From: Mayamaea pseudoterrestris
Lineage: Eukaryota
Direction of reading: 5' to 3'
Assembly: GCA_027923505.1 (NCBI GenBank)
Contig: BROI01000008.1
Span: 372,001-436,000, forward strand
DNA: 64,000 nucleotides
The position numbers and the translations under genes are program-made. Position 1 is the stretch's first letter, and each line of letters starts with the position of its first letter. The notes beneath the pieces were generated by a model. That model saw nothing but the letters and a program-made list of their open reading frames with translations. It was not told where the DNA came from and made no database searches. Positions 21,338 to 40,127 of the stretch are shown here, one piece after another.

Positions 21338-22143
21338 CTGCACAGCTTTATTCGCACTCGATCTTTGAGTTGCACTGGATGGCTAAGTTTGCAATATGAT
21401 CTCTGTATACAATTCTAAAATTACATCCACAAAAAATATAAAATGTTACGTGTATTAGTTCAAATCATGTCTCTATATGGCTAACAATATGAAACTATGC
21501 AATGGTTCCAGTGCGTTAGCAAAGTGATGAAGCGAAAGTGGGATGAAGAATCTGTGGGCTGCACCTCATGGGAATGCAGCCTTTTGCAACACCATGCCAC
21601 CAACAGCTGAGTGTAATAATGAACGTTGTTGCTATAGGTCGAAACACTTGTTACAAGCGCTTCGCTATCACACCGGTAGAAATATACGGTAGTCAAGAAG
21701 GTCCTTCGGCGATGCGAATCTGGCTACCGTAGATCCATGACGTGTCATTCCTTTTTCAATCGCGCTTGATTAGGTGACGGGTCGCTTTGGCTGAAGTGCA
21801 TGACGCGCTCACGATTTGGCTCGTTGGTGTGTTCTTCAGACGGCCGTTCTTTGCCAGCGCTGCTCCTCCTTTCGAGTATATACGAAAGACTCGAGCAAAA
21901 GACCGTGGAGAACTGGTTGTTGATTAGCATTCACCCAATATTTTGTGCGAGATACCTGTCGAGGGAAGAAGGAAGATACACCAAGTGGAGACGAGTCGGT
22001 TCTGTTCCATTGCTCGTCGAATATTGGAAGCAAGGACAGAACGAAGCAGCGAGAACTCTATCGATTGACGTGTGGAGTTTTTAACGTCTATCAACTACTT
22101 TGCTTGAACAAGACATTGAATTGTTCACTAGTTATAGAACAAC

Positions 22144-23781
22144 ATGTCGGGACCTCCGTTATATGCACAGCAACGACCAAGCACAGCTTCTCCTGCCGAA
22201 GATTGCCGAGATTACCTACGCACTGGACGCTGTAAATACGGGGGACAGTGCAAGTACCATCATCCAGCGAATGTACAGAGCGGAGGAGGTTTGCGAGGCC
22301 CCATTGACCCAAATGAACCGCTCTTTCCAGTTCGGCCGAATGAACCCACGTGCCAATATTACTTGAAACATGGCACTTGCAAGTTTGGCCAAGCGTGCAA
22401 GTTTAATCATCCTCCGCACGGTCAACAACCTTTGAAGGCGGTCATAAACGGAAACAACTCAGCGGCTGTTTTGGTTAATGTCACTCGCAATGAAGGACAG
22501 CATCAAGTCTTGTTTGATCAAGTTGCGACGGATGCGAATGGTAATCTCATGATGCTCCAGTTCCTTCCACAACGACCCGACGAACCAGATTGCATCTATT
22601 TTCTTAAAAATGGTCGCTGCAAGTATGGAGGCACCTGTCGATACCACCATCCCATTAACTTGAATCAACGTCGATTTAACTCTGGGGGAGGAGGAGCAGC
22701 AGACGACCAGCGGCGCAACCGATCGAATGCGCAGGACCAGTATCGAGTGGCGCCAAATGTTCAGTATGTCAGCCAGCTTGTACCTGCCTTTGCGCATAAC
22801 AACGTTTCGGATGGACAACCAGTCACTTATTACAAAATAGACAGCACTTCAGTTTCACAAGGGTTTAAGCCGGTGCAGATTGTTTCAGCAGCAGCAACAG
22901 CCACAGCAGCAGATGGGACAGCAACCTCGTTCGCAGTTCCATTGAATGATGCCGTCGCAGGCTCATCGTCAACGTCTTTGGCTTCATCGTTTGAGACAGC
23001 AGGTTCCACTATGGATCATTTAGGAGACGCTTCGGGCAACATCTGGAATCGAGCAAGGCGACATGGAAGTGGCGGCAGCCTTAACACAAGCATCGCCGAA
23101 GCGAGTCAGACTCGCATGCACAATGTTGCTAGCGAAGGAAACATTCGCCAACGGCTGCGTGCGGCCTCGTATGGAAGCGACTGCAATGGATCTCAATATG
23201 ACACTTCCACCATGACCTCAGCGACAAGCGTGCAAAGTATGAGTCGAAACACATCGGCCGGTTCCTGGCGAAACGATCGTCCATCAGAGGCCTCGCGCCG
23301 ACCACCTCAAAATAGTCAGTACGCTCTGCAGGTACCAAGCGGTCAGTCACAGCATATTTCGAGTAAGCGCTCGCCTCAAATTCGCGATCAAGCTACGATC
23401 CGCCGCAGCTCTCGAGCACGTGGCCAGCAGTCAGAGGAAAATGATGAAGGACTGACAATGATGACATCGGCCCTTTTGACCATGCTTGACACGACGGAAG
23501 AAGCTGGCGTAGGAATTAACGGTGATGAAGACGAAAGGTACCCTTCAGCCTCGTATCATATGGAGCCGACGGTTTTTGAGGAGCAGTTTGAGAGAATGGC
23601 GATGCAACAACCTCCTCCAGGTCTGGGCCCTGGCAACAACTCGGCTCGGTCCTCGTGGGCAGCGACTTTACAGGGTTCATCAAATCTTTATGGGGCATCC
23701 CGCAACCATCCTAACGGCCAAATGGAATCATTGGTCGACCAGTCATCTCAAGATGCCGATCTCGGCTTGTACTTTCCGTAA
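22144..23781 (+). CDS. Tandem CCCH zinc-finger RNA-binding protein
   Basis: Three C-x8-C-x5-C-x3-H fingers, two of them led by RPNEP/RPDEP. Confidence 0.9.
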   Translation: MSGPPLYAQQRPSTASPAEDCRDYLRTGRCKYGGQCKYHHPANVQSGGGLRGPIDPNEPLFPVRPNEPTCQYYLKHGTCKFGQACKFNHPPHGQQPLKAVINGNNSAAVLVNVTRNEGQHQVLFDQVATDANGNLMMLQFLPQRPDEPDCIYFLKNGRCKYGGTCRYHHPINLNQRRFNSGGGGAADDQRRNRSNAQDQYRVAPNVQYVSQLVPAFAHNNVSDGQPVTYYKIDSTSVSQGFKPVQIVSAAATATAADGTATSFAVPLNDAVAGSSSTSLASSFETAGSTMDHLGDASGNIWNRARRHGSGGSLNTSIAEASQTRMHNVASEGNIRQRLRAASYGSDCNGSQYDTSTMTSATSVQSMSRNTSAGSWRNDRPSEASRRPPQNSQYALQVPSGQSQHISSKRSPQIRDQATIRRSSRARGQQSEENDEGLTMMTSALLTMLDTTEEAGVGINGDEDERYPSASYHMEPTVFEEQFERMAMQQPPPGLGPGNNSARSSWAATLQGSSNLYGASRNHPNGQMESLVDQSSQDADLGLYFP

Positions 23782-24015
23782 AAAGTTTTAATGAGCTGCC
23801 ATTTGGAGTCCTTGTTTATATGCAGCTATAACGCTAACATTGGCACTTGTTGAATGGATATTTTGATTTTCTGTTTGTTGTTTGTGACAGTCGATAGAAT
23901 ATGGGCTGGCCGCTGTTGGCCTTTACCCAGAGACATAAAGAAACATATATTTTTCATCATTTCAAGCGACGAAGGCGTTGGAGAATAACGTCAAAAAAAT
24001 AAACAACGCCAAATT

Positions 24016-25755
24016 TTAGCTTGCTTGCTTGTCGTCGACAATAGTAGCACCTGCTGCGACTACCAGACTCTTCATGGAGTAAATGATTGTAGCCCCGTCA
24101 GCCCATTGTACGCCATAGCCGTAACGGCCACGTCTCTGCACGATTGTAGGGATGATTGCCGGATTCTTCTTCGTAGTTTTGATAACCATTACTTGATCAG
24201 ACTGTGTCTCCTCCATTCTTTTAAATGGACTTTCATCAAGGATTACTCCCGATTTTGGATCTCTGGCGCGAAGACTCACAGCTTTAATTTTCCGCTGTAC
24301 AGCTCCGAATTCGCCATAAAGGCGGACGTTGAAATTTTCGCTGACCTTGTCCAAAGAAAAATGAGTTGTCGCGACGTCAAAGACTGCATCTGACTCTGGA
24401 AACGTGGCTGTGACCTGGCTGTCAAGCTTGTTAAATTGCATCTTCAAGAGCTCACCCGTCAAAGCGTTTGCCAAAGTTCGGAAAGCCCCAAGCTCGCGAC
24501 CATATATTTCGCTTCGGACGAGGCAAAAGGGCTTTCCATCGTCATTTGCTGCATTCGTGTCTTCCGAAATGGGCAGCTGGACAGTCGCTGCGACATTTTT
24601 AAATTCATGGTTACTTTTGTCGCCAAGGCCACGACCGAATGGATAGTGCTTCCGTCCGCCTTCACATTCAAAATATGCCATGTTCTCTACAACAGCGACA
24701 GTCGGAACACCAAGCGAAGTAAACATTTCAATCCCTTTCATCGTATCCAGCGCCGCGAGCTTGGAAGGCGTCGTGACTGCGATTGACCCACTAATCTGTA
24801 GATCCTGCAAAACCTGAAGCTGTACATCGCCAGTGCCCGGAGGAAGATCCAAGACAAGAACATCAAGTTCTCCCCAATCAGTTCTTTTCATCAATTGCGA
24901 AACGACTTTACCCGCCATCGGACCTCTCATGACACTGGCACCATTTCCTTGTCCACTTCCCGGGACTCCGCTGTTAGCATTGACAAAACCAAGACTAAGT
25001 AATTTGACCTTTTCATGCTCAATTGGATAAACAAAGCCATTGCCAAGAGAACTCGACCGAATTGTAACATCCATTGGCCGTACCAGCATTGGCAGTGACG
25101 GACCGTAGATGTCAAGATCGACGAGTCCAACTCTACCTCCCATTGCCGCAAGTTCATATGCCAGATTGACGGCAACCGTGCTCTTTCCCACTCCACCCTT
25201 ACAGCTATAGACGGCAACAAAGTGAGCGACGTTCGTCAATCCAGGTCCCAAACTTGTAAACAGTTCGTCCGTGTCATCAACCAGTTGCGCCATCATTGGC
25301 CAAGGCGTCGAGGCAACCGCTTCGACATTCACAGTCGGGAGCTGCTGCACTAGCAAGCCTTGTGAGTCGATCCATTCCATTATCGATTTTTCAGCCTCTC
25401 TTTTGACTTGGTCTCTCAGTCGCGTCAGCTCGGGATGCAGCAGTGTCGGGAGTCGAAGCAATAAGTGCCAAGTCATTCCATCGTCCGAAACGGCAAATTT
25501 ACGATGTAGCCAATCTAGTGACGCCAAGTCTCGATCCAAAATAGGATCCTTGACTGCCAACGCCACTGATAAATGCAGATGGTCCTCCAACCGTGCTAAT
25601 TGTCGCTTGGAGAGAGTTTGAAGAAACCGATTCGCTGGTGCGTTTCGCGCTGAGCCGGTGAGTTGCGAACAACGCTTGCATTCCTGATAGCGTAGACTCT
25701 TTAACTGCGACGACGATGGGCGAAGCACCTTCAACATGGCGTTGACTACGACCAT
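24016..25755 (-). CDS. HCF101: HCF101/Mrp/NBP35-family Fe-S cluster carrier P-loop ATPase
   Basis: SCKGGVGKST, DLDIYGPSLP, VMRGP, DLPPGTGD, VVENM; DUF59-like N-terminus and DUF971-like C-terminus (GRYGYGVQWADG). Confidence 0.8.
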   Translation of the reverse strand: MVVVNAMLKVLRPSSSQLKSLRYQECKRCSQLTGSARNAPANRFLQTLSKRQLARLEDHLHLSVALAVKDPILDRDLASLDWLHRKFAVSDDGMTWHLLLRLPTLLHPELTRLRDQVKREAEKSIMEWIDSQGLLVQQLPTVNVEAVASTPWPMMAQLVDDTDELFTSLGPGLTNVAHFVAVYSCKGGVGKSTVAVNLAYELAAMGGRVGLVDLDIYGPSLPMLVRPMDVTIRSSSLGNGFVYPIEHEKVKLLSLGFVNANSGVPGSGQGNGASVMRGPMAGKVVSQLMKRTDWGELDVLVLDLPPGTGDVQLQVLQDLQISGSIAVTTPSKLAALDTMKGIEMFTSLGVPTVAVVENMAYFECEGGRKHYPFGRGLGDKSNHEFKNVAATVQLPISEDTNAANDDGKPFCLVRSEIYGRELGAFRTLANALTGELLKMQFNKLDSQVTATFPESDAVFDVATTHFSLDKVSENFNVRLYGEFGAVQRKIKAVSLRARDPKSGVILDESPFKRMEETQSDQVMVIKTTKKNPAIIPTIVQRRGRYGYGVQWADGATIIYSMKSLVVAAGATIVDDKQAS

Positions 25756-26136
25756 ACGTCCTGCAGGAACGCTCTATGAGTATATACTTTGATGGTTTTC
25801 CATCACCAACTTGCGTTTTGACGTTGATGGATCCAAAATCTTGGAGAACTGACGTACTGACATGAAGCGGCACTAAAATCTCAGTTATGTCGCTGCGACA
25901 TCATCGCGTTGTCCGAGGTTTATCTCGCTAGTACAGAGGTATGGAGGAAGTCCTGGCAGAAGCATTGAAAATTTCGATTTTTAATAAAGCCCTAGGCAAT
26001 ATTGGATGTAAATGTCATAAAGAATCCTGCCCCTAACATTGTTTTTTCTACGCGTGAAGCTACCGATCTTTTGTGTAGACATTCATTGCGTTTTGATTGG
26101 GTTTAGGTAAAAACGTGCGCTGCGATTGGCTCTATT

Positions 26137-26172
26137 GTTCGCTTGTATCGTTCGCCTAAGGAACAAGCGAAC
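26137..26172. other. Perfect 10-bp inverted repeat (hairpin), 16-nt loop
   Basis: GTTCGCTTGT (26137-26146) and ACAAGCGAAC (26163-26172). Confidence 0.8.
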
Positions 26173-26255
26173 CTAACCGAACCATGAATACTCGATATTA
26201 TTGCCTTCATATTTCTTGATCGTGGAAAACACTCTGATTGGCGTTTTCTGAACAT

Positions 26256-26370
26256 ACATTGTACAGTGTGTGGCAGTGTTGTAATGCATGTTATGTCGCT
26301 TGTGCTGTATTTAACTCACATTGTACTATATGCGGCAGTGTTTTAATGCAACTTGTGTCGCTTGTGCTGT
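26256..26370 (+). repeat. Imperfect tandem repeat, 62-bp period, ~2 copies
   Basis: ACATTGTAC..GGCAGTGTT.TAATGCA..T.TGTCGCTTGTGCTGT starting at 26256 and 26318. Confidence 0.85.
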
Positions 26371-26444
26371 GCTTCCATCGTGTCCCTCATTGAGTACGTT
26401 CTTTTTCTGGCAGTGTCGTTTGATCCATCATTGTATTTCCTCTT

Positions 26445-26721
26445 TTAGTTTTGCAGTGTCTTTTGGCCCATGCTGGTATCTCTTGATTGATGAGTTTTAG
26501 TATCGCGTGTTTCCGTATGTTGTCAAGAACGTTGGAATGGCTAATATAGAACGCGATGCACGCGTTGCCCGCATCAGAAGACCTCCGTTAGTTTTGCGGT
26601 GCCTTTTGGCCCATGCTGGTTTCTCCTTGATGAGTTTTAGTATCGCGTGTTTCCGCATGTTGTCGAAAACGTTGGAATGGCTAACATAGAACGCGATGCA
26701 CGCGTTGCCCGCATCAGAAGA
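26445..26721 (+). repeat. Tandem duplication of ~135 bp (26445-26581 and 26588-26721) covering the upstream region and start of the small DAR-family ORF
   Basis: Both copies read TTAGTTTTGC.GTG.CTTTTGGCCCATGCTGGT...GAACGCGATGCACGCGTTGCCCGCATCAGAAGA. Confidence 0.9.
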
Positions 26722-26829
26722 TTGCAGGAGGCCTGCGAAGAAGCGGAGGATGAGATTGTGTGGAACGCTGGAAACTTCTACAATGACAATTTGACGAATG
26801 AACTGATTTTGATTGACATTCGGCTATAG
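26677..26829 (+). pseudogene. Truncated copy of the island orphan 'DAR' family (MANIERDARVARIRRLQEACEEAEDEIVWNAGNFYND)
   Basis: Near-identical to the 5' part of ORF 32363-32824 on the opposite strand, then diverges and stops. Confidence 0.7.
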
Positions 26830-26839
26830 TACATGTTAT

Positions 26840-27499
26840 CTACATATTATTTCGAGCAACAGTTTCGGGTTCGTTGCCAACTCTTGACTGTGCTTCTTCA
26901 ACTCTTGCCGAAAACGCTTTGACTTCGACAATGGAACGGAATTTATATCCAAACTTTGGAGAATAGTAGAACCTGTCATATTGACGTTTCTTGCCATACT
27001 TTGCACGTCGTCGTTTGCATATTTGTATCCAACCGATTGCCCAATTCATCGATCGATTATTAACGGGACAGGAATATTGTACTTTATCCCAGTTTTTCGT
27101 TGACTCTAACGACCGAAGTAGAGTTCCATAGTGTTTCACTCTTGTTCCGTCTTCTTGCATATGAGTCCGAAACAACACGTATTCGTTGTTAGCCAACTCC
27201 ATGCCAAAACCCATTTGCACATGTACCTCCACGCGCGCGCATACCTCCTTGAAGTACTTGTGAAGGTTGTCGTGTACGCCATCCATCACTGCTTGAGTTA
27301 CGTATTCTGCGTTGAAGTTAGTTCGTGAGGGAATCATGTTGTGCAGACTTTGCGATCCGTGTCTTGTAACTGCTTGGAGCAGCGACATGTTATAAACTTT
27401 GGACACTGCGAGACAGAACATGTAATTAATTGCAAAGTTGGGTAAGTGTCCGTGGACACAACATTTAGTAGCAGGCACTTGCGCGACTCGTAACAGCAT
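26840..27499 (-). CDS. MBD-like family protein, copy A
   Basis: WAIGWIQICKRRRAKYGKKRQYDRFYYSPKFGYKFRSIVEVKAF matches the MBD consensus GW..R..G..D.YY.SP.G.KFRS..E. Shares upstream C.A.S...N..L and V(Q/R)MGF blocks with paralogues. First ATG at 27499 (the ORF-track start is TTG). Confidence 0.75.
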   Translation of the reverse strand: MLLRVAQVPATKCCVHGHLPNFAINYMFCLAVSKVYNMSLLQAVTRHGSQSLHNMIPSRTNFNAEYVTQAVMDGVHDNLHKYFKEVCARVEVHVQMGFGMELANNEYVLFRTHMQEDGTRVKHYGTLLRSLESTKNWDKVQYSCPVNNRSMNWAIGWIQICKRRRAKYGKKRQYDRFYYSPKFGYKFRSIVEVKAFSARVEEAQSRVGNEPETVARNNM

Positions 27500-27513
27500 C
27501 TTTACTTTGACAG

Positions 27514-27846
27514 TCAATGCAGGTGGTTGACTTGCGAAGGTAGTGAAAGGTTGAATTCGTCAACTCGTTTATATTGAAATGTGATTTTCCTTGGTCGAGA
27601 AAAACTCAACGCATAATCGTAGACATTGATATTTTTGTGGCGCTGGTTATCTAAGAGTTCTTTTCCTGTTAGCGTTGCGTTGTTCGCGAGATTGATATAT
27701 GTCACCATCTGGTATATATCCGATATCGAGCGTTGGGTGTTGCTCGTTGCCAATATTGGCAATATTGTTTGACGTGCTTCCGTTTTGGTGAAGCTGTGAG
27801 CGACCACCCGGCGCGCGATCCCGGCCGGATTCGCTAACGGATTCAT
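27514..27846 (-). CDS. Hypothetical protein (110 aa), island orphan
   Basis: ATG-initiated ORF abutting MBD copy A; may be its frameshifted N-terminus. Confidence 0.4.
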   Translation of the reverse strand: MNPLANPAGIARRVVAHSFTKTEARQTILPILATSNTQRSISDIYQMVTYINLANNATLTGKELLDNQRHKNINVYDYALSFSRPRKITFQYKRVDEFNLSLPSQVNHLH

Positions 27847-27926
27847 TTACAGTTGGGTCGTTTTTTGTTGGCGAACCGTGATGCGATCTTCACATCTCCG
27901 TGTAAAGTCCATTTGGCTCGTCTTGT

Positions 27927-28706
27927 TTGAATGAATCGTCTCTGATGCTTCTTGGAAGAGATCACTCATGGGACAGCACTTCGGTTTCGGCTGAAGAGTG
28001 TGAAGAGCTGCCTCTTCTGTTGGAATGGTTTATAGTGCTGTTGGCTGAATCTAAAGTATTGAATCACAATCTCGTCGAAGTAATTCGATCATCGGGTGTA
28101 AACAATGTGGTGACGCTTGCGAATGACAATGAATCAGTCTTCCAGGAAGGAGGTGATGCATTGACCGACTTCATATTCTGTATTGTTGATAACAGGTTTC
28201 GAAGTCGGTTTGACGCTGTGTATGAGCGAGCACACGAACTCCTGCGCATGGGGTATACGGTCGATAAGGAATTCGAAAAGCCGTATATCTCTCGATTCTT
28301 TCGTTATCTTCCCGATGGTGAGTGTAAAGAGAGATATCGCACGCTGCGAGTAATTATGGGAAGCCGGTTGCAAGAATCGTGTGGAAGTAAGTTCTTCGCT
28401 CCGGTCGACTGCAGGAAAATGACTTGGGAAAGAGGATGGATACAGTCTCGTGTTCAGCGCGTCTCGCGAAATGGCGAAAGGCAAGCTCGTTTCGATACTT
28501 ACTATTACACGTATCATTATGGTTTCAAGTTTCGATCCATTCCGGAGGTGAAGAGATTTTTGAGGTTGTACCATCGGTACGGCGGGGAACGTAATCCTGA
28601 AAGGTCGGAGTTCGAGGCACGCAGACATATTGCGATATCGCGCCGTCAAGAAAAGGATGCTAAGGCTCGACGTAAGAGATACCAATGGGTCGACGTAGTT
28701 AAGTAA
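27927..28706 (+). CDS. MBD-like family protein, copy B
   Basis: WERGWIQSRVQRVSRNGERQARFDTYYYTYHYGFKFRSIPEVKRFL; upstream LAESKVLNHNLVEVIRSSG and LRMGY blocks. Confidence 0.75.
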   Translation: MNESSLMLLGRDHSWDSTSVSAEECEELPLLLEWFIVLLAESKVLNHNLVEVIRSSGVNNVVTLANDNESVFQEGGDALTDFIFCIVDNRFRSRFDAVYERAHELLRMGYTVDKEFEKPYISRFFRYLPDGECKERYRTLRVIMGSRLQESCGSKFFAPVDCRKMTWERGWIQSRVQRVSRNGERQARFDTYYYTYHYGFKFRSIPEVKRFLRLYHRYGGERNPERSEFEARRHIAISRRQEKDAKARRKRYQWVDVVK

Positions 28707-29014
28707 TCTGCAACATAGAATGTGTTTCTATTGTTATTTATCTTGTAGACGGTCGCTTGTGGTTTCGCCATTCGTGTATCGTGTTGCACCTGTGGCCGTA
28801 CTGTGCCGACCGTGCGCGGGACAACGCTTTTGTTAAGCGTGTGAACTGAAAAGGACTTGTTGTTTGACACGTTAAGGGGTTTGACGGTTTCGAGAAAGAT
28901 AAATTCCGCTATGCAGCGATTTTCAAACGTCAGCACGCTCGCGTCGCATAACGAGAAGGAGTCGTTTTGCTGGTACGTGATGGCGAAATTTGAAATTTTG
29001 CCTCAACGCTCGAT

Positions 29015-31366
29015 ATGTTTACTTGTAGACGGCTATGTATTCTTACTACATATGTGTTTGTCTCTGTCATGCATATCATATTTGTTTTACGTCTATTTGC
29101 GATAATGCGTCTCGCAATACCATCGTTGGAAACCAAACGCGAACTTTTATCCCGAGCTTCTCAGGAGCTTGAGAGTTATGTCATTAAGGAGCCCCAGACT
29201 AAAACTCTTCATGCAGCTTTCTGCTGTGTTTGTGATGGTACTCCAGATGAGGCATATTGGCATAAAATGGTTTCTGTTACCAGAGTTGCGTCGCTGTGTT
29301 CGACTGCCAATATGCGAAAGGTTGATCTCTCCGACGTTTATCCGATGGACTTATTGAACGAATACACCGCTAAGCATCAAGCATTGAAGGATTATGTGTT
29401 ATCACCCGATGCCTACGTGAACAAAAGGAACGAGATATGCGTATGCCGTAAATGTCTTGTTGACCTAGAGACAAACGCAGAAGAGAGGAAAGCAAGGCGG
29501 CGGCCGCCGCGTCAATCAATCGCTAATGGGTATGTTATTGGCCATGAGCCTGAAGAGCTCAAGTGTCTCAATGAAGTCGAATTGGCTTTAATAAGTAAGG
29601 CGAAGCTCCATTGTCAGACATGGGTGTTTTTTGGAGGCTGTCACAAACAAATAAAGGGATGGACGACGCTTTTGAAGAACCATCCTGAAACTAACGTTGC
29701 TAATATGATGCAGATTCGGGATTCTGGCCTACACGGAAGACTCCTTGTGGTTCTATGTGGACCCTTCACTTCAACGCAGAAAGCCAAAGTGTTGCAGAAG
29801 ACCCGTGTTGATCCGGAAAAGGTTTTAAATGCCTGGAATTGGTTAAAGGTTAACAATTTTCGCTACCGTGACCTTCATATTCCCGACCCTGACAGCCTTC
29901 CGGTACCAAGAATTGTGGAAGATAAAGTAGAATGGCAAAGGAGTGTAAGCGTCGATGTTGAGAACGAAATGAGCATCACCCATGTCTTCCCGGATGTTAC
30001 TCTTCCTGGACGCATGAATGGAACGTTTCAGACTCAGGATGAATTCCGCAAGTATATTTTGGAGCATAACGGAGGGAATTACGAGGCGCAGATGCATGCT
30101 CGGCCTTCTGCTGACCGTTTCATGGATTTTGCGGGAGACACCATTGCAGATGCCTTTGTTTTACAGTTTCCTTACGGATTTACCGGTCTAGCCGATGACC
30201 CAGCTGTGCTGAAGTTGAAGAAGAGAAAAAGCAACACGCGATACTGCGGTCGAAAACGTATCGATGTTTACAAGAAGTATCTTCGGCATCGCAAATCTGT
30301 CTTTCATGGTCCAATGTTTGTCTTGGTAATAGAGAATCTTATTCTCAAGGAAGCCATCTTCAAAAGTGTTGTGATCCAGTGTAATATAAAACAAACGGAT
30401 GGTCGTTCCATTGCGGACAAATTCGGTACCATGTCCACCAGCCAGTTTGAAAAGGCGATTACAGATTGTCAGCAACAACACGGGGTTAACAAGCGAAACA
30501 CTACAGAGCATCGTTTTCTGCGCAGTATAACAGCGGTGTGTGAGAATCTGCCGCATACAAACGAAGCATCCCAGGATGCTCGCAAGGTATACTTTTCTTT
30601 CCTCATGAAATTCGGGATGCCCGCAATCTTTCTAACCGTTTCACCGGACGATCAGCGTAACTATCGCATTGTTGTTTACGCTCTCGGCAAAGAAAACTAT
30701 AATCCAGACAGTACAGTTAACGTGGCGAGCCTTACTGACCGACAGATTATCGACAATTTTCGGATGCGTCAGGATATTCGTTACGAGCATCCCGGGTTGT
30801 GCGCGGAGGAATATGAACGCGTTGTGAAAGCTGTTGTTAGTCATTTGTTCAATTGGGATATAGACAATCAGTGCAGTAAGGGAATCGGAATTTATTCTAA
30901 TCAGAGTATCGATGAAGTAATTGACAGAGTTTGTAATTTCCGCAGCCCATGGTTTCGTATTGCTGTCGCACGGCAATTCCGCTACATGACGACCCATGTC
31001 AGAATGGGCTTTGAAATGATACACGATGCTACTTCCGACTCATACTTTTTAGTTCGACGTTATAAGGTTCCTGTTGTCGAGTTACGCTGGCCGAGACTAG
31101 CTACAATCGAAAAGTCTCCACTAGGTGGGTCGATTACATTTCCACTTAGATTGCTTGGCTGTCGCAAAGAATGGGGTATTGGTTGGACGCGTTTGCAGAT
31201 ACCGGGTAATGATAAGACGCCGCGACGCGATTGCTTCTTTTCGCCCAAATTTGGATTCATGTTCATATCGATTGATCAGGTTAACTTCTTTGTAAGCCTT
31301 CTCGATCGATTCGAAGGGAGTGACTGGGAGATGGAGGAGTATGCTTTGTCAAAAGTCTGTGAATAG
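29015..31366 (+). CDS. Helitron Rep N-terminal region (DUF6570-like + Helitron_like_N) truncated and fused in frame to MBD-like copy C
   Basis: CCVCD...CRKC..L...P..SIANG..IG..PEEL..L..VE..LIS; KVLNAWNWLKVNN..Y; QFPYG..G; LPHT.EA....R; GMPAIFLTVSPDD (Rep motif 1). After KGIGI (~30893) it switches to VRMGF...WGIGW...FFSPKFGFMFISIDQV. No HUH motif, catalytic Tyr or PIF1 helicase. Confidence 0.8.
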   Translation: MFTCRRLCILTTYVFVSVMHIIFVLRLFAIMRLAIPSLETKRELLSRASQELESYVIKEPQTKTLHAAFCCVCDGTPDEAYWHKMVSVTRVASLCSTANMRKVDLSDVYPMDLLNEYTAKHQALKDYVLSPDAYVNKRNEICVCRKCLVDLETNAEERKARRRPPRQSIANGYVIGHEPEELKCLNEVELALISKAKLHCQTWVFFGGCHKQIKGWTTLLKNHPETNVANMMQIRDSGLHGRLLVVLCGPFTSTQKAKVLQKTRVDPEKVLNAWNWLKVNNFRYRDLHIPDPDSLPVPRIVEDKVEWQRSVSVDVENEMSITHVFPDVTLPGRMNGTFQTQDEFRKYILEHNGGNYEAQMHARPSADRFMDFAGDTIADAFVLQFPYGFTGLADDPAVLKLKKRKSNTRYCGRKRIDVYKKYLRHRKSVFHGPMFVLVIENLILKEAIFKSVVIQCNIKQTDGRSIADKFGTMSTSQFEKAITDCQQQHGVNKRNTTEHRFLRSITAVCENLPHTNEASQDARKVYFSFLMKFGMPAIFLTVSPDDQRNYRIVVYALGKENYNPDSTVNVASLTDRQIIDNFRMRQDIRYEHPGLCAEEYERVVKAVVSHLFNWDIDNQCSKGIGIYSNQSIDEVIDRVCNFRSPWFRIAVARQFRYMTTHVRMGFEMIHDATSDSYFLVRRYKVPVVELRWPRLATIEKSPLGGSITFPLRLLGCRKEWGIGWTRLQIPGNDKTPRRDCFFSPKFGFMFISIDQVNFFVSLLDRFEGSDWEMEEYALSKVCE

Positions 31367-31629
31367 ATATATAGACTCAGCTGCTATGTACGCGGTTTTA
31401 CTAGGATACTAATATACGTCCTCATTTTCTTGGACTTGGTTTTATTACATACGCAAATTTTGGGCCGTTGGAGCATGACTGACCGAAAATTTGCCGTTGG
31501 GTGTTAGCCAAATATTGGTGTGAAGGCCTTTGTGTTGATGTTATGGTCGTTCGAACGACTGAGTGCGTTGAAGGTGGACAGAGCTGACATGCTCATTAAC
31601 TGGCTGTTTGTACATACCCCAATGCTACT

Positions 31630-32307
31630 ATGAGAGTTAAACTTATAAAGGCGGATCCGCAAGTGTGCGATTTTAGATTCGAGGGCTATGTAAATAGTTT
31701 GATGTATTGCCAAGCTCTCTCAGATACAACCAATGAAGGACTCTTTGAAACGATTGAAAGATGCGGAGTGCGTTCTTTGAAACAGAAGATGCAATGTTTG
31801 CCTGCCAGGATGGATCCGTCTAACATTATTGACTATTTGCTTGGGGATAAATACCTGACTCGTCGTACGGAATACGATATACACTACCGTGAAGTCTTGT
31901 GTTGTGTTCGGATGGGTTTCGTGGTAGAGATAAAAGGGAAAAAACACACATTTATTCGAAGGTACGATAATCCTATTGGAGGCGCTAATGCTCCTCATAT
32001 AAAGGCGATCAAGTATCTGCAAGCAAATGCGAAGACATATCAGATACCATCATCAAGAACCAATTATCGTCTGCGTCACTGGGGACCAGGATGGATACAG
32101 TTCAATGTCCCTCGCGCCAACGCACCAAGAAAAGTCGACAAGTACTATATCTCACCAAGATGCGGGTTCAAGTTCCGTTCTGCGGTCGAAGTGACAAGAT
32201 TCGTTCAGGAAATGGGGAAGATAGATTTTCACGATCGCAGTCGCGCTGAGATGACTGCACGAAATCGTATCAAGTCGGTTACAAGTGCATCTACACGATA
32301 CGCATGA
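31630..32307 (+). CDS. MBD-like family protein, copy D
   Basis: WGPGWIQFNVPRANAPRKVDKYYISPRCGFKFRSAVEVTRFV; upstream YCQALSDTTNEGLFETIERCG and VRMGF blocks. Confidence 0.8.
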   Translation: MRVKLIKADPQVCDFRFEGYVNSLMYCQALSDTTNEGLFETIERCGVRSLKQKMQCLPARMDPSNIIDYLLGDKYLTRRTEYDIHYREVLCCVRMGFVVEIKGKKHTFIRRYDNPIGGANAPHIKAIKYLQANAKTYQIPSSRTNYRLRHWGPGWIQFNVPRANAPRKVDKYYISPRCGFKFRSAVEVTRFVQEMGKIDFHDRSRAEMTARNRIKSVTSASTRYA

Positions 32308-32362
32308 TTCTATACGTCGTGTTTTATATTTACGCGCTAAAACGGCAAAGTTAATAGTGCAT

Positions 32363-32824
32363 TTAACGTTTCCATTCCGTGTCGTATTTAAGCAAGCGAC
32401 CCTCGTCTCCATCCCACGTGTACTCTCTACTGATGTCATCGTTGTCCATAAGCGGGAGTAAATACCAATGACTGCCTTGGCTTCCTTCACATACGATGCG
32501 ACGATACAATTCCGGTTCCGTTTTGTCTAGCATTTCGTTCACGGCTGCAATGAAATCATCTCCTGTTCCAGGCATCTCGTGACGGATGAAGTTGTATAGC
32601 GTCACGAGCTTGGCGGCAGATCCACCGTTCTGCATCCAATCATTGCAGGCCCCCAGCATAATGTCCAAATTATGCTCATCCTCATACAGCATGTACTGGG
32701 TCTCATCATTGTAGAAGTTTCCAGCGTTCCAAACAATCTCATCCTCAGCTTCTTCGCAGGCCTCCTCAAATCTTCTGATGCGGGCATCGCGTGCATCGCG
32801 TGCATCGCGTTCCGTGTTAGCCAT
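32363..32824 (-). CDS. Island orphan 'DAR' family protein, apparently full-length copy (153 aa, acidic)
   Basis: MANTERDARDARDARIRRFEEACEEAEDEIVWNAGNFYNDETQY...; the 9-nt unit GCATCGCGT occurs three times. Confidence 0.65.
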   Translation of the reverse strand: MANTERDARDARDARIRRFEEACEEAEDEIVWNAGNFYNDETQYMLYEDEHNLDIMLGACNDWMQNGGSAAKLVTLYNFIRHEMPGTGDDFIAAVNEMLDKTEPELYRRIVCEGSQGSHWYLLPLMDNDDISREYTWDGDEGRLLKYDTEWKR

Positions 32825-33074
32825 TGCAACGTTTTCGATACGAGTGAAGTTGTGCACGCTTGTGTGATCTTATAACCCTTCCCTTCCTTCCCGTATACGT
32901 ATTTTTGAACGTTTGCATGGATATAATATCGTCGACGAATTCCCTTAACGCTCAGCAATATTGGCGATTAAGTGCGTATCTGCATGATTCGCTGCAGTAT
33001 GTGCTTTGATGTTTTGATATTCTATCGGCGGTTATCAAGTCAAAGGACGAACGCTTTACCGCACGATGTTATAT

Positions 33075-33238
33075 TCAATCGAAATAGTTAATAACGACAA
33101 CAAGCTGTACGCATGCATCTCGTTTCCGCATGTTTCCAGCGTTTCGAACTATATCCTCCACTGCTCCTTCCCATGCCTTTACGAGTTTTCTGTTGCGCGT
33201 ACGTTGCGTGCATTGCGTGCGTTTCGCGTTAAGTCCAT
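33075..33238 (-). pseudogene. Frameshifted diverged copy of the 'DAR' family
   Basis: MDLTRNARNARNVR in one frame and RNRKLVKAWEGAVEDIVRNAGN in another align to MANTERDARDARDAR and RIRRFEEACEEAEDEIVWNAGN. Confidence 0.6.
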
Positions 33239-33312
33239 TGGCTTGTTTCGTAAGGTGGTACGTCAATATAATATAAGCTATCAGCAAGGTAATAGTAACA
33301 ACAACATGCGTT

Positions 33313-33654
33313 TTATTCTGTATTTGCCAATGGTTGTTCTACGAAAACTCTTATTGTGAACAATTCGCAGTTCGACAATTCCTTGCACTTGATTATGATT
33401 GTGTAACATTTCCGGCATAACGGGCAACGAGGACATCGTCTTTTCGTCGTCTCTGTTTCGCTCCATTTTCTAATGCAGCGAATGCAAAATTTGTGTTCAC
33501 ATGAGTTTACCATTGAACGCTGTCTCTCTGTCATCGAGCCGTGACAAATTCCACAGTCATTCATTGCTGGATTTGTAGCGATAATGAAGCGACAACACAG
33601 CAAAGATTTGAAGATAATGCGAGTGGCATGACACTGGGATGCGATTGAGCACAT
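33313..33654 (-). CDS. Small C3HC4 RING-finger protein (likely start 33564)
   Basis: CGIC-x11-CEHKFCIRC-...-CPRCPLC. Confidence 0.75.
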   Translation of the reverse strand: MCSIASQCHATRIIFKSLLCCRFIIATNPAMNDCGICHGSMTERQRSMVNSCEHKFCIRCIRKWSETETTKRRCPRCPLCRKCYTIIIKCKELSNCELFTIRVFVEQPLANTE

Positions 33655-33669
33655 CTCGAATTCCAGTTT

Positions 33670-33711
33670 GCCGAAAAAGGGCTATTGTTGTTCTGGATAG
33701 CCTTTTTCGGC
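33670..33711. other. Strong hairpin, 15-bp stem with one bulge
   Basis: GCCGAAAAAGG(G)CTAT...ATAGCCTTTTTCGGC. Confidence 0.85.
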
Positions 33712-33837
33712 GACGACGGAAAATGTCACTCAACGGTAGGCTCCATCCAGCTTCATCCCTGACGTTCTATCTTTGATGATGAATGCCTTATTATTGTAGA
33801 GTTGTTGGACGACAAGCAGTCACAAGCATTATTCTGA

Positions 33838-34101
33838 ATGTCGCCAGTTGAAATGAGAGTAGACGAGCCATCTCACATCCCACGAACGGTGACTGGGGTA
33901 CAAGGAGGAACTCGTTCTGCTTTTGTCGTGGATCAAGTTGCTGTCATGTCGCCTTTTCTGGATGTACCTTCCAACAACACTGGGACGCGAAGTACACAGA
34001 GTCGGGAGCAAGGTGGTTACTGGAATGGCGATCATTGGGACATGAGACTGCTGACAAAGTCTCCGTGTTCTGTTCTTATTCATTTTGAAGGGTTCAAATA
34101 G
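33838..34101 (+). CDS. Hypothetical protein (87 aa), island orphan
   Basis: ATG-initiated ORF filling the gap between the hairpin and the MazG-like gene; no motif recognised. Confidence 0.3.
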   Translation: MSPVEMRVDEPSHIPRTVTGVQGGTRSAFVVDQVAVMSPFLDVPSNNTGTRSTQSREQGGYWNGDHWDMRLLTKSPCSVLIHFEGFK

Positions 34102-34138
34102 ACTGCAGTTGTAAAGTTAGCATTTATGATTAGTAAAT

Positions 34139-34801
34139 TCATCTGTTTAGCAGGCGTACAGCAAGTAATAGAATATCGGCCAATTCGTATCCTGCTTTGA
34201 TAATGTGGTCGACAGAGTATATCCTGGACGATTCGTTCTCGGGTAACCAGTTGAAACAGTCTGCAAATTCTGCAACTTCGTTGTCGATCGCGGTGACTAG
34301 ATTCGCAACTGTATCGAACTTGGTAAAGTCTCGTTCCTTGGCGAATGTTGTTGATATTTCAGTCAATTCGCTCACGATGCTATCGACGTGTTTTGTGTTA
34401 CTTGAGAAAGGTTGACGAGTATAACTTTGATGCACTCCATCAGGACGTGTGTCCACTGTGACTCCTGTTCTGCATGAAAGCATCGTGTACTTATCAATCC
34501 GATGCGGTGTGGTGTGAGTCATTACTGGATACTTTTTGGAATTCAATATCGACTTATCTTTCGCCAAGATTGAAAGGTTAACTTCAAGCAAATCTGCGGC
34601 GATGCATGTCTGGTGAATGATAACATCCGTGAACCTGTTCAGCAATGTGGTATTCATGTGAATCGCGTTCCGATTTGTAATCATATATTCGAAAATGCCC
34701 TTGGACGCAACTTTCATGCGAAAGTAGATGTCTCGAATGCATGCGTCGTCTACCGTCCTAGTGATGCATCCTTGCAATGTATGAGGGTTCATGTCTATCA
34801 A
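34139..34801 (-). CDS. MazG-like / DCTPP1 (RS21-C6)-type dCTP pyrophosphatase domain protein with unknown N-terminal half
   Basis: FAKERDFTKFDTVANLVTAIDNEVAEFADCFNW...GYELADILLLAVRL matches F..ERDW..F..P.NL..A...EV.EL...F.W...ELAD.L.Y..RL; the ExxE...ExxD metal ligands are retained. Confidence 0.75.
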   Translation of the reverse strand: MIDMNPHTLQGCITRTVDDACIRDIYFRMKVASKGIFEYMITNRNAIHMNTTLLNRFTDVIIHQTCIAADLLEVNLSILAKDKSILNSKKYPVMTHTTPHRIDKYTMLSCRTGVTVDTRPDGVHQSYTRQPFSSNTKHVDSIVSELTEISTTFAKERDFTKFDTVANLVTAIDNEVAEFADCFNWLPENESSRIYSVDHIIKAGYELADILLLAVRLLNR

Positions 34802-35167
34802 GTAATCGTGTTTGACCGTGATGTTGTGAGGCTTCTGTGCGAAAGCTAACTCGGGATAATTCGCGCCGGGAAACCGTTGAAATAAATTTTTCGCAGTCGT
34901 TGAATTCTCCTTGGCCGAAATCGTCTGAGTCGTTTTCCCAGACGAAAAAATCGTAGATCCGTTGAGTGTTGTAGAACGTTGTTTTGGTCTTATATTTCTG
35001 AGTCGGTTAGTAAACGGATGTACGATTACCGAACAGGTCGACGAAAGTTAAGATCCGTATATGTTGTCGAGTCTTGCACTGAATATTTGGAGGCCAAATA
35101 TTGATTAAATTGGTGATGTAAGTACAGCAAGTTGCGAGGAAACATCTCATAAAATCAATCCTGAAAC

Positions 35168-35925
35168 ATGACCAAGACGACCCCTGCCAAGAGTAAAGAG
35201 GAGACCAAAAGCCCTACCAAGGCGAATTCGTCCCCAGTGGTCCGGGCTTCTCCACCCCGCAGCAGCAACGTCAAACAAGGAAAAGGAACGGAAGCCAGAC
35301 TTGTAACGCACCCTGTCCATCCGGATCTTGCGTTGCAGATTATAACCTACGAAGATAGCACGGAACGAAAGGACGCGTATAACTTTCCATTGAAGGATGG
35401 CATCAAGAATCCGCACAAGCTGTCGGCCCGCGCGAAAGAAATCGATCTCAAGGTTTTCAACCGTCGTGTTCCGGGAACGAGCGAGAGTATGTTGCAGTTG
35501 AACACCACGTCTGGGGAGGCATACCCAAGAGCTGTGTTTGTTCGTAAATTTCCGGCACCTCCGACACCAGCGGAGCGAATGGAGACGATGGCGATCATGG
35601 AAGAAGTCCTGCGTGGCGATAAGACGAGCAAGTACCCACCTCCCAATATTCGCAAGATGGACTACAATCCCACAGATCGGGTTCGACCACTTGATGATTG
35701 TAAGCTTTCTTACTTGTTCAATGTTTGGTATGGTTATCATGTACTTACAAATATCCATTTATAGTTTTCCAGGATAACACCATCGAGGCCTTGATCAAAT
35801 CCATGTACGACTTTGAGGTCCTCAACCATGACTTCGCCACCTCCTATCCTGAATTGTTGGGTGGCATATTTGGTCGTCCTACTGAGCATCGTTTTGCCAG
35901 AGACCTTGGACGTAGCGATGACTAA
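35168..35925 (+). CDS. Spliced island orphan protein (intron 35700-35764)
   Basis: A GTAAGC...TTTATAG 65-nt intron joins ORFs 35168-35764 and 35725-35925 in frame (LDD|FFQDNTIE); Ser/Pro/Lys-rich N-terminus. Confidence 0.7.
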
Positions 35926-36061
35926 GTGTCTACTATAGTATATAGAGAGTGGAGATATAAGATAACGACGATTATAAATTATCACTTTCTTTCAAACATA
36001 GACTAAAGGATTGTCACTCGCTCCTCTTGTTCGCTCTGGTAACGTAACAGCCATCGAATGA

Positions 36062-38818
36062 TTACCCGCATTTTTCCAGACCAACGACAACGAATTCTTT
36101 AAACATTCGATAGACCGGATCCTCGTCGGTGAAAAAAACATGATGCAACTTGGGTACCTTCACCGCATTTGTAAACGAATTATCGTCGTTTGTTGTGCAT
36201 TCCTTCAAGCATGCCATAGTAGCATTCAGGAGTTGTTGGTATGCTGCAATGATCGGTTTCTCCACCCGTTGGTCACTATTGAGCGCATCGAATGCAATCT
36301 TGAAGAGCAGCTCAGCTGTCATGCTCGGACTCATAGTTTCATGCTGATCGAAGGCTGCCGTGAACAAGTTCTGGAACATAAGAAATACTCCACTTTCTGG
36401 GAAAGTGGCAATGTCGTTCGTCATTATCGCGATGTTGAATACAAACCAATTTCTCATGCTTTCGAGGTCTTTGGTAGTCGCGAAAAGTTTGTTTGCCGAC
36501 CGTTCAAATCCACCCTCTTCTAGTTGCGCAATTTCGTCATCGGAGCACACGGACGCAAGTGCCTTGAATGCCGCCTTGGAAATTACTTGCATGGGTGTTT
36601 CACCAGCTTTAAGTTTTGCGTCCTCATGATTTAACTTGACACTTTTCGCAGGTACTGGAGAGGATGCCGATTCGTGCACGGAAAGTGTTTCGTCGTGTGT
36701 TCGCTTTCCATTTGATTGGTCTTTCAGCGACTGACAGTATGTACTGTCCGGAGGCACACCCGCTTGGCGTAAAAGCAATGAAACAATAAAATCGGTACCA
36801 AACTCCTTTGCGATTGTGTCGCCAACTTCGTCTCCCACAGGAAACACTTTTTGCAACACTTCGAATAGTCCGAGGATCTGTTCCTGACGAGACATATCAA
36901 TCTTCTTCTCCACGATAGTGTCAAGCTTTGCCTCTGTAAATTGTAAACCTTTGCCTCCATCGGCAACGATTATAAGTTCGTTGCGCTGATCAGAAAAGGA
37001 CGAACCCATGACGTGAATTATAATATTCGCACATAAAGAAGAGGCCGTCATCATCTGAGCTGTCGACTTGGTGATCACATTACAAAACCCAAGCTTATTG
37101 TTACAATGGCTTTCCAAGTTGCTGTATTGATTGGCAAATAATGGCTGAGAAGAAATGGGTTAGTTATTACGAACGGGACATGATTAGCACCGCAAGAGCT
37201 GCTTTCCACTTACATCTTGGACGATTGGAGCATATGCCAAGTGGCACAGCGCACGAGCCGAAGAACGACGTTTGAGATAGTACCATGCGTTTTTGTTGAT
37301 GTTGGTGCATTTAGGATCAAATGCTGCACTTATGAAGTTACGAACGATGCATTTTGCGTTCCTGGTGTTGTCATAAAAACGTTCTCCAGCTCCACCGTTC
37401 CCAAGGAGTACGATAGTGGCGATCGACAAAAATAATGCCATTATGTTCCCGTAGGAATCCAAACGTAAGAGAACATCAGCCTTTGAGTCCAGGATGTTCA
37501 CTTTCTGCTTGTATTCATATGCGTCCGGAATGATACTAGTGGCGTACGGAATTGCCAATCCTTCTTTAATTGCTGAAGTTGTCCAAAACTCAATCATGCA
37601 GACCAAGTTGTCGCAATCATTAATCAGATTTGCTGCGGCTGACGAGCAGATAGACAATGAGCAATAGTTGATGGAAGAATACAAGATGAACAGCTGTGCA
37701 ACGAGCTGCTTACCAATAACTCTTAGTGTATACTTCATCAATATATCACTTCCTTTGTCGAATCCAAGAAGCGGCACATCAAGGTCGATGCATGACGCAA
37801 CATACGCCACAAACAGACCAGAAATTGCTTTGTAGAATTTCTTGTGCTTGATCATTTCGTCTTGCCAATACATAGGCTCCTTCGATTTATTGATGAAATC
37901 AGGGGATGTCGCGGCGGATCTTAATTCCTTGAAGTCGAGTTTAGCCTTTTCAATATGTTGCGAGTAGGATTTGTAGGTTTCCAGCTCGGGAAGTGCCAGG
38001 AAGGATTCCATGTTCTTCGAAGCAAGATGAGTCTCAATCTCCTCGATCTTTTCGGATACTCTCATGTGCATCTGCTCTTCTTCATCTTTAAGGTCAAGGT
38101 ATAAATAATTGTCTGACAACTTGTTTTCCAGCTCGTAAAACGGATTGCTACTTTCGGTTGTTGTTCGTTTTGATTTATTCAAGCCTCGCGTGTTTATAGA
38201 CTTGGTAGAAGGCAGGACACGATACAATTGCGTAGACGGACGAGTCACTCGAGACGATTGCGTTCGAGTCGATACCTGGTGCACATGCCGAGTACGGGCG
38301 GTGGATTGATGTGTGGCTTCGTCTTCATCGGTATCGGGCTTGTCGTCGATGTCGTTATCGTCGGAATTTGACGAACTGATTGGATCGGAATCAAGATTGT
38401 TGGAATCTGAAGCACTGCTATCTTCATGAGCAGAATGCGTTGAATCAGATGTTGCGTCCGTTGCATTCGATGGAGTGCGTGACGCCGCTCCATTCCCCAT
38501 GTCTGTCGTCTCGGCCGCATGGATACTGGAGTCTTCTTCTTCGTTGCTTGGAGGCACTGGAGCGTTTCGGAAACCGGCTACCACTTTGTTGAAGATAGAA
38601 TTAATCATGGGGTCTGCTGTGGGATTCTCCGCGACGAGCAATTGGTTTGACACTTGTACGATACGTTTTGCCTTCTTACTCTTGTTTTTTGTTGCAGTAA
38701 TTCGTTTTGGCATTATATGATGGTTATAGCGAAAACGACGAGCGTGGAGAGCGTTGTCTATCGTAACGAACGTTCGAGATTTGTCACCTCTCCCAGTCCG
38801 CTCGTTCCATCTTGGCAC
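36062..38818 (-). CDS. Large spliced island orphan protein (~850 aa; intron 37145-37213, probable in-frame intron 37639-37713)
   Basis: A GTAAGT...CTAAC...TTCTCAG intron joins ORFs 37184-38818 and 36062-37117 in phase 0. NLS-like KNKSKKAKR, acidic disordered tract, helical-looking remainder. Start may be MPKRIT near 38713. Confidence 0.7.
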
Positions 38819-39115
38819 GATTTTTCAGCGAAAGTTTTCGTGGGCGACTGCGGTCATCCAACGGATGTTTCTGACGTCATCGAACATTTTTGTTTAACGA
38901 CAATACCATTTCAAATTAACTGTCAACCCATGTGTAGCCTAGAATTAAAATTTACTGTAATCCTATGAGTAGTAAAATCAAGTATTCAATTACATCCACA
39001 ACCATAAACCGAGCCCCCAAGACAGAATTCCGGCGTTTCGACCATTGCGGCCGATCTGTCGCACCATTTGTTTTGTCTTTGTGAACGACCAAAGTAAAGC
39101 ATCGGTCGAATTAGT

Positions 39116-40127
39116 ATGAACAGCACGGAAGAAAGATGTCTATGGAAGAGAACGATGAGTCCTGAAACTCTAAGACGAAATGATTCGGCGGAGACTCTTG
39201 CATCGATGCAAGCAAGATTCGCCTCGACGCCGCCAAAACTTTCCTTCTGGCAGTTATGTTCGAGATCGCATGTTGTTGTCCAAGAAATATCAATAACAGC
39301 TTACTTGTTAACGAGACATAGGTTATTGATAGAAATGAAAGAGCGGCAATTTACAATTGACTCCAGGAGGAACAGTGCATCATCTTGCTTCATTGTCGTG
39401 GCGTTGCTTGTTGTTTTATTCTTTGGATCGCGAGGCGAATCAGCGCAAGACCGAAGGGCAAAGGTCACACAGAGAGCCACGGACGGTCTTTTATCGGCTA
39501 CACTTCTACGCCTCATGGCCAGCTTTCTGCAGAGTCTGACTGCATCCTACGCTTCTGATACGCTATACACTTTGGCTGTCGCTGGACTTGCCTTGCATAT
39601 CCTAGCTTGCGACTATTCGTACGCTAATGGCCGCAATCACAATTCTTCAAAAAAGAACCATGTCATGAACGCACTGGGTCGACCTTTGTTTCACGGCGGA
39701 ACAGTGTCTTTAAACTCGGCCTTGTTCAGTACGATGCTATTGGTGTCCAGGCTCGACACGTCCGAAGCTTACTTCTTCATATACTTTGCAATTGTCCTCT
39801 TTGCATTCTATCCTGTGTCCAGGAACTCTATTACAGCTAGCTTTCCAGCCCATGACAATGGTGAGAAAGAACGGTAGTCATCGAGAACCTGTGTGCCGAT
39901 ATCATGCCGCTTACTTTGTGGAATTTTGTTTCGCAGTGGCTCTCTGGCTCGTTACGCTCCTTGTATGTCTTGCAACTGGAGTTCTGCTTAAATCCTGGCA
40001 CGAGTGTGTATTATTCGTGATTGGCGCTATGCTGTTTGGGCTATTCATGCCACTTTGGAGGTTTGTTGCACAGAAAAACAAGGTTTTTCTTCTTGGACCA
40101 TGGGATATACCAACGAAAATTGTATGA
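39116..40127 (+). CDS. PIGC: Phosphatidylinositol N-acetylglucosaminyltransferase subunit C (GPI2/PIG-C), intron 39861-39936
   Basis: LQSLTASYASDTL, HILACDY, VSLNSALFSTMLLVSRL, C-terminal QKNKVFLLGPWD. Confidence 0.85.

Follow-up and report, generated by a model that had tools for sequence, protein, structure and literature searches.

Four related open reading frames (ORFs) in the compact genome of the eukaryote Mayamaea pseudoterrestris, clustered within a window of 64,000 nucleotides (nt) of contig BROI01000008.1, are best explained, at a probability that we put at about 0.6, as a lineage-private family of readers built on a methyl-CpG-binding domain (MBD). Three of these ORFs (copies A, B and D) are free-standing and join an orphan N-terminal domain (N-domain) to a C-terminal MBD, and the fourth (copy C) carries the end of a family member behind the front part of a Helentron-type Rep protein. 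In the explanation that we favour, D and B, probably together with A, would act by binding (methylated) CpG, the N-domain would serve as their output, and C would be a dead product left over from recombination with a Helentron-type element. DNA methylation is translated into chromatin states by MBD proteins, on which the literature searches made found little for protists; the locus offers three natural variants of a single putative reader with an orphan partner domain, and in addition a decayed fourth copy that is fused to a transposase fragment. All coordinates given below are positions in the window.

The proposed sequence of events starts from local duplication, which would have produced small DNA-reader proteins composed of the orphan N-domain, a canonical MBD and a C-terminal helix, which are modelled as one body. 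The MBDs of D and B, and probably that of A, keep the residues that read symmetric methylated CpG (mCpG) and would most likely bind (methylated) CpG DNA, and the N-domain would contribute an output specific to the lineage, for example by recruiting partners or by self-association. A Helentron-type Rep gene (HLE2, DUF6570) would have been cut before its HUH motif and joined to a family member from about residue 60 onward; after this fusion, the MBD of C would have lost both of its Arg fingers. Should methylated CpG indeed be bound by the intact copies, their orphan domain would be a candidate new module through which the reading of methylation takes effect, and the chimera would document an exchange of parts between rolling-circle elements and epigenetic readers that has so far been shown for Copia retrotransposons only.

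Paralogy and the C-terminal MBD

The original prediction for this DNA had described four ORFs that share ordered sequence blocks, with a first block confined to the three free copies, and had read them as products of old duplication whose frames were kept open; on all of these points the analysis agrees with it. The four ORFs are present, the ATG of B lying at 27945, in frame with the position 27927 that had been given for it. In a MAFFT alignment, the free copies and the last ~150 amino acids (aa) of C show 21-30% identity to A and share 16 invariant columns, which include the MG of the 'RMGF' block, W..GW, G..F.S..V..F and a late Glu. Five of the six pairs are significant in BLASTP (A-D, 1e-16; A-B, 1.4e-15; D-C, 1e-8; B-D, 1.3e-8; A-C, 5.5e-7), and the sixth, B-C, is not (E 0.22). 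When a profile of the four copies was run against the 585 six-frame ORFs of at least 50 aa in the window, it matched these four alone, the next best ORF reaching E 0.28. Frames of such length do not arise by chance, since the region 25900-39027 holds eight ATG-initiated ORFs of at least 200 aa, compared with a mean of 0.007 in 300 shuffles (longest shuffled ORF, 207 aa). A look-alike of the first block, (C/L)xAxSxxxNxxL, does occur in C; it sits in the part derived from a Helitron, where relatives of that type conserve it as well, so that the family module in C begins at about aa 630. Judged on their sequences, A, B, D and the tail of C are true paralogues, tightly clustered and derived from very old duplications.

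That the C-terminal part would adopt an MBD-like fold had been predicted as well, together with a check against the Pfam MBD family and by structure comparison, and both checks point the same way. Against PF01429, with its gathering score of 21 bits, D (31.9 bits) and B (22.6 bits) lie above the cut-off and A (20.9 bits) falls 0.1 bit short of it. The four-copy profile, compared with PDB sequences, retrieved at E<=1 a total of 25 distinct chains, every one from the MBD family (best E 3.6e-4); they are entries of AtMBD5/6, MBD1-4 and MeCP2. An AlphaFold2 model of D (mean predicted local distance difference test, pLDDT, 72.1; predicted template modelling score, pTM, 0.63) shows the predicted arrangement of an MBD, a small alpha/beta fold whose strands carry the DNA-contact loop and are followed by one helix. 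In a Foldseek comparison of this model with the PDB, MBD structures occupy 18 of the first 19 rows, and AtMBD6 (7fef_A) superposes with a probability of 0.98, a template modelling (TM) score of 0.79, a root-mean-square deviation (rmsd) of 1.7 A over 46 columns and 41% identity. VIA, a search independent of Foldseek, also places 7fef_A in its top row (Z 4.8, rmsd 1.5 A, 46/48 residues, model residues 149-194). These fold scores are modest because the core of an MBD comprises just 45 residues, and the methods nonetheless agree. The C-terminal module is, by profile and by predicted fold, a genuine MBD. It shares its fold core and contact residues with plant MBD5/MBD6 and animal MBD1/2/4/MeCP2, and AtMBD6 is its best match in both structure and sequence (37-41% identity over 46 residues).

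The residues that contact mCpG are retained unevenly. In a HMMER alignment to MBD1 (1d9n/1ig4), D presents Val, Arg, Asp, Tyr, Arg and Ser at six contact positions, opposite the MBD1 residues that we take to be V20, R22, D32, Y34, R44 and S45. The states of the other copies were read from the same columns of the four-copy MAFFT alignment: B keeps all contact positions, including Arg/Asp/Tyr/Arg; A keeps Arg, Asp and Arg, with Phe in place of the pocket Tyr; and in C the two Arg fingers are replaced by Gly and Ile and the Tyr by Phe. The expectation that A, B and D, though not C, would keep two Arg and the Asp is thereby confirmed. As the invariant columns of the family correspond to structural and DNA-contact residues of the MBD, they form a pattern of purifying selection; the synonymous sites themselves are saturated between copies that are ~25% identical.

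Real proteins could still have switched their ligand, by analogy with other MBD proteins, from mCpG to unmethylated DNA, RNA or a protein partner. Such a switch would fit the Phe at the pocket position of A, a change that mammalian MBD3 shares, as well as the loop from the first Arg to the Asp, which measures 8 to 12 residues and has a different length in every copy (that of B is 4 residues longer than that of D); in addition, the closest sequence relatives among the matches listed are uncharacterised metagenomic MBD proteins. Some animal members of the MBD family are reported to bind ligands of these kinds, as the work on CopiaMBD also states (PMC6673714). Since D and B keep 6/6 contact positions aligned to MBD1, and since the nearest solved structure is that of AtMBD6 bound to DNA, we consider a change of ligand to be very unlikely. 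Table 1 lists the positions of the copies and their parts, together with those of the surrounding features that are treated further below.

Table 1. Location and make-up of the four copies and of the features around them.
Feature	Position (nt)	Strand	Residues (aa)	Description and source
Copy A	26840-27499	-	219 in total	Orphan N-domain, MBD and C-terminal helix (ORF list, standard code; Pfam, MAFFT, BLASTP)
Copy A MBD, Pfam stretch	26912-27034	-	156-196	PF01429
Copy B	27945-28706	+	253 in total	Orphan N-domain and MBD (ORF list, Pfam, MAFFT, BLASTP)
Copy B MBD	28428-28613	+	162-223	PF01429
Copy C, whole ORF	29015-31366	+	783 in total	ORF list, standard code
Copy C, front part	29015-30901	+		Helentron-type Rep: DUF6570 (aa 162-290) and partial Helitron_like_N (aa 433-612)
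Copy C, tail	30902-31366	+		In-frame remainder of a family member (its last two-thirds), with RMGF block, W..GW and MBD
Copy C, tail MBD	31181-31306	+	723-764	Alignment to paralogues, custom profile
Copy D	31630-32307	+	225 in total	Orphan N-domain, best-preserved MBD and C-terminal helix
Copy D MBD	32083-32262	+	152-211	PF01429
Low-GC island	25898-39027			~13 kb; GC content 0.44-0.46, flanks 0.47-0.49
Inverted repeat, left arm	26663-26786	+		Truncated copy of the 5' end of ORF 32363-32824(-)
Inverted repeat, right arm	32706-32838	-		Start of the 153-aa ORF 32363-32824(-)

The orphan N-terminal domain

The ~145 aa in front of the MBD are an orphan domain that matched no known family or fold in the libraries searched. 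The original prediction, which had counted ~150 aa, did not recognise it either and had advised a profile search of proteomes, and the searches made since bear this judgement out. Among 1.84 billion representative proteins, the family profile found 245 matches at E<=1e-3, of which the best 150 are aligned in the MBD part with the sole exception of P0001; this protein is a 753-aa form of the window's own C and, among the matches listed, the sole carrier of the N-domain. Three matches whose alignment starts earlier (P0015, P0018 and P0025) are multi-MBD proteins, in which the alignment covers two repeats. With D as the query, no match was obtained among proteins of 123-394 aa, and with the tail of C the single match was again P0001. 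The isolated N-domains gave nothing below E 0.1 in Pfam. NCBIfam gave no match, the first matches in the Atlas scored 0.79 and 0.83, which lie under lead level, and BFVD gave no match at E<=0.001. In VIA, none of 48,161 PDB chains reached Z 5, and the best chain over the N-domain (residues 3-97) was 2ao9_A (Z 4.4). Pattern searches yielded 34 matches in viral contigs, 0 of which were confirmed, and 134 in metagenome contigs, 1 of which was confirmed (L001), with an MBD alone.

In the AlphaFold2 model of D, the N-domain is predicted to form five helices, a beta-hairpin that starts at the RMGF motif and a further helix, after which the MBD begins. Its pLDDT amounts to 70-86 within the full-length model and to 44.2 when the domain is folded alone, a weak sign that N-domain and MBD pack together into one body. 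Two candidate origins of the domain were also considered. Its derivation from a Helitron Rep was rejected (hhalign of the three free copies versus ten Helitron relatives, probability 0.06), and the reading of the RMGF beta-beta-alpha unit as a degenerate second MBD was not supported (hhalign versus 221 MBD segments, probability 1.4 over 13 columns); nor did an MBD profile detect a second domain in A, D or C.

Plant and animal MBD proteins differ from the family in having no counterpart of its N-terminal 145 aa, and the family itself varies in loop length between copies. In A, B and D, Pfam detected no partner domain of the kinds that those proteins carry. Four metagenomic proteins (P0006, P0035, P0036 and P0048) share part of its architecture, in that they combine a C-terminal MBD with a short acidic stretch and a helix resembling the E..A(R) helix at the end of the family's proteins; they have nothing in common with it in their N-terminal parts, and the profile match begins at position ~112.

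Copy C and its ties to mobile DNA

The front part of C matches DUF6570 with 68.5 bits in Pfam and Helitron_like_N with 26.4 bits, under the cut-off of 28.9, over profile positions 16-162 of 191. C therefore carries both DUF6570 and the Rep N-terminal region that together mark the N terminus of HLE2/Helentron proteins, DUF6570 being a marker of this group according to HELIANO (PMC11417382). Fifty-five proteins match aa 150-640 of C, seven of them (P0151-P0157) at 44-52% identity over 95-98% of the stretch. The homology to these seven relatives ends at about aa 628, right before their HUH-type His-x-His motif. Past this breakpoint the relatives continue with His-x-His and a Y..Y motif, followed in P0157 by a Walker A, whereas C has none of these and instead takes up the family sequence, at a point that corresponds to about residue 60 of the free copies. 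Neither the HUH motif nor the catalytic Tyr motif of RepHel is found in C, a Pif1-type helicase is absent from C, which ends at aa 783, and from the 16 other island ORFs scanned with Pfam, and a phmmer search with the whole of C against the PDB gave 0 matches. Cut before HUH and without Tyr motif and helicase, the Rep part is a catalytically dead fragment. C is, by its sequence, an in-frame chimera between the front of a Helentron-type Rep and a decayed family member; it is not a working transposase, and its reader function has probably been lost, too.

Through this fusion to the dead front half of a Helitron-type transposase, a lineage-private set of probable methyl-DNA readers is tied to mobile DNA. 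The original prediction went further and held the set to be element-encoded. That claim has partial support: C is fused in frame to a Helentron-type Rep, and the low-GC island is skipped by one contig (see below). No transposon ends were seen, and nothing shows A, B and D to be cargo of a mobile element.

Related associations are on record. In arthropods, CopiaMBD is an MBD within the polyprotein of an active long terminal repeat (LTR) retrotransposon, and its binding of methylated DNA has been demonstrated (de Mendoza et al. 2019, PMC6673714). Like CopiaMBD, C joins a methyl-DNA reader domain physically to a transposon protein; unlike it, C has a dead rolling-circle Rep fragment as the partner and a fused MBD without Arg fingers, and three further copies are free-standing. 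Cargo genes connected to chromatin and methylation are also known for Helitron-like elements: an oomycete HLE2 element carries a SET domain (PMC11417382), and fungal transposons, Helitrons included, encode TET/JBP (PMC12730594). C has DUF6570 in common with Helentron/HLE2 elements that captured such domains, yet it is without their HUH motif, Tyr motif and helicase, and the main text on HELIANO, in which 'MBD' occurs 0 times, does not name it among captured domains (PMC11417382). An MBD joined to a Helitron-type protein, or a transposon-borne MBD in protists, was not found in the literature searches made; supplementary tables could list one. MBDs as such are already known, as are retrotransposons that captured an MBD and Helitron-like elements that captured genes; novelty lies in the orphan N-domain, in the close clustering of paralogues of very old origin and in the Rep-MBD chimera.

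By analogy with these systems, the family could alternatively be the accessory cargo of an active Helentron-type element, where it would steer insertion to methylated DNA or help to cope with it, and C would be a deletion derivative in which RepHel became joined to a downstream cargo ORF. This would be consistent with the single frame that Rep and family sequence share in C, with the extra domains that HLE2 elements often carry upstream or downstream of RepHel according to the HELIANO main text (PMC11417382), and with the capture of an MBD by Copia elements, which is documented with DNA affinity purification sequencing (DAP-seq; PMC6673714). What speaks against it is that an MBD occurs in 0 of the 54 other Helitron-like relatives in precomputed Pfam lists, that HUH motif, Tyr motif and helicase are missing throughout the island, and that copies with 21-30% identity are far older than a recent burst. 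Further evidence on cargo comes from the island itself.

The surrounding island

The four copies lie in a low-GC island, whose ORFs are mostly orphans, between a NUBPL-type ATPase gene (24016-25755, minus strand) and a GPI2 gene (39116-39877, plus strand), two housekeeping genes that are transcribed divergently. The relative synonymous codon usage of the island ORFs correlates with that of a host set at r 0.13-0.42, compared with 0.33-0.85 for host genes that were left out in turn. An inverted repeat of ~125 nt, with arms that are 90-95% complementary, brackets all four copies. The sole Pfam match above cut-off among the 16 further ORFs of the island is a RING finger, and no Rep or helicase family was detected among them.

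Contigs of four other runs were compared over 22000-40000; three of these runs (X3, X5 and X6) gave just short, uninformative pieces of low depth. In the fourth, X4, whose lower summed depth across the island carries no weight here, one contig joins 25883 to 39028, and its 17 'between' letters resemble 25884-25897 with small changes; as they repeat that stretch, the skipped segment is ~25898-39027. The anchor measures merely 30 letters, so that the empty-site allele is a hint, not proof, and the island may be present or absent between haplotypes. Other X4 pieces are 85-89% identical to parts of C, namely to 30176-30553 and to the tail at 30974-31347, and over 29791-29992 the listed differences to X4 fall at third codon positions of C's frame in 21/26 cases. 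Together, these pieces and the third-position bias indicate that there are either additional copies, under coding constraint, or a haplotype that has diverged.

For a role as element cargo, diverged copies of both the Rep part and the tail of C, with their bias towards third positions, are a favourable observation, as are the lower GC content of the island, its weaker match to host codon usage and the contig that skips it. Ends of the kind expected of such an element were not recognised: neither short terminal inverted repeats with T-T, nor an A-T insertion signature, nor TC...CTRR with a hairpin was seen at the island edges or around C, this locus alone having been compared. We consider cargo of an active element rather unlikely on balance. 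Unlikely, too, appears a more far-reaching form of it, in which the family is the cargo of a Helentron-type lineage with its own methyl-DNA readers and a new N-terminal effector, and the island is a recent, still polymorphic composite insertion. If this were true, the element would pick or neutralise methylated chromatin and would provide the first DNA-transposon counterpart of CopiaMBD, with a new fold.

Several points weigh against the lineage-private reader family that we favour. Neither of the two protein collections searched contains A, B or D, whereas C is present; they may be uncalled or silent, and the presence of C makes it probable that the source annotation failed to call them as genes. 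The Pfam score of A stays marginally under the cut-off, and the MBD of C has no Pfam match and was detected via its paralogues and a custom MBD profile (15.2 bits). The structure of D is an AlphaFold2 prediction from an alignment of four sequences, and its comparisons are formally weak, with no Foldseek row against the PDB at E<=0.001 and 0 of 48,161 chains at Z 5 in VIA. The variation in loop length could alter the DNA contacts. Given the X4 pieces, finally, the term 'local duplication' may understate both the size and the mobility of the family.

The first of these points is also what would be expected if the copies were decaying or never-functional relics of old duplications in an island of fast turnover, unexpressed and unselected. 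The clear decay of the MBD in C fits this explanation, and so does the rearranged neighbourhood with its inverted and tandem duplications. Relics, however, would hardly have kept three frames of 219-253 aa open at ~25% identity, at a length that shuffling almost never produces, nor would their invariant columns coincide with the structural and DNA-contact residues of an MBD. We therefore regard such an origin as quite unlikely.

Some further features of the island and its surroundings were recorded. The 153-aa ORF at 32363-32824 (minus strand), which belongs to no family, has its first ~40 codons and upstream bases repeated nearby: its start occurs as a tandem pair (26487-26581 and 26627-26721, 96%), the inverted copy ends in a stop at ~26830, and a further copy lies at 33132-33197 (71-74%). 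The RING-finger ORF is located at 33313-33654 (minus strand) and matches zf-RING_2 with 30.6-32.6 bits, above cut-off. Directly upstream of A, on the same strand and in another frame, a 110-aa ORF (27514-27846, minus strand) may represent either an upstream exon or a gene of its own; its match to DUF7375 is weak (E 0.0046, 17.7 bits, below cut-off). Two ORFs of ~200 aa without a Pfam match overlap almost fully on opposite strands (35147-35758, minus; 35168-35764, plus). The join in X4 would leave ~230 nt between the start codons of the two flanking genes, and a stretch of ~40 nt just within the right island edge (38983-39030) recurs in X4 and X5 contigs with unlike flanks on both sides, like a short dispersed repeat or motif. 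Outside the island, the adjacent plus-strand ORFs 10791-15386 and 15427-16455 match ATG2_CAD at successive profile positions and are probably one ATG2 gene (10791-16455), broken by a short intron or a frame change.

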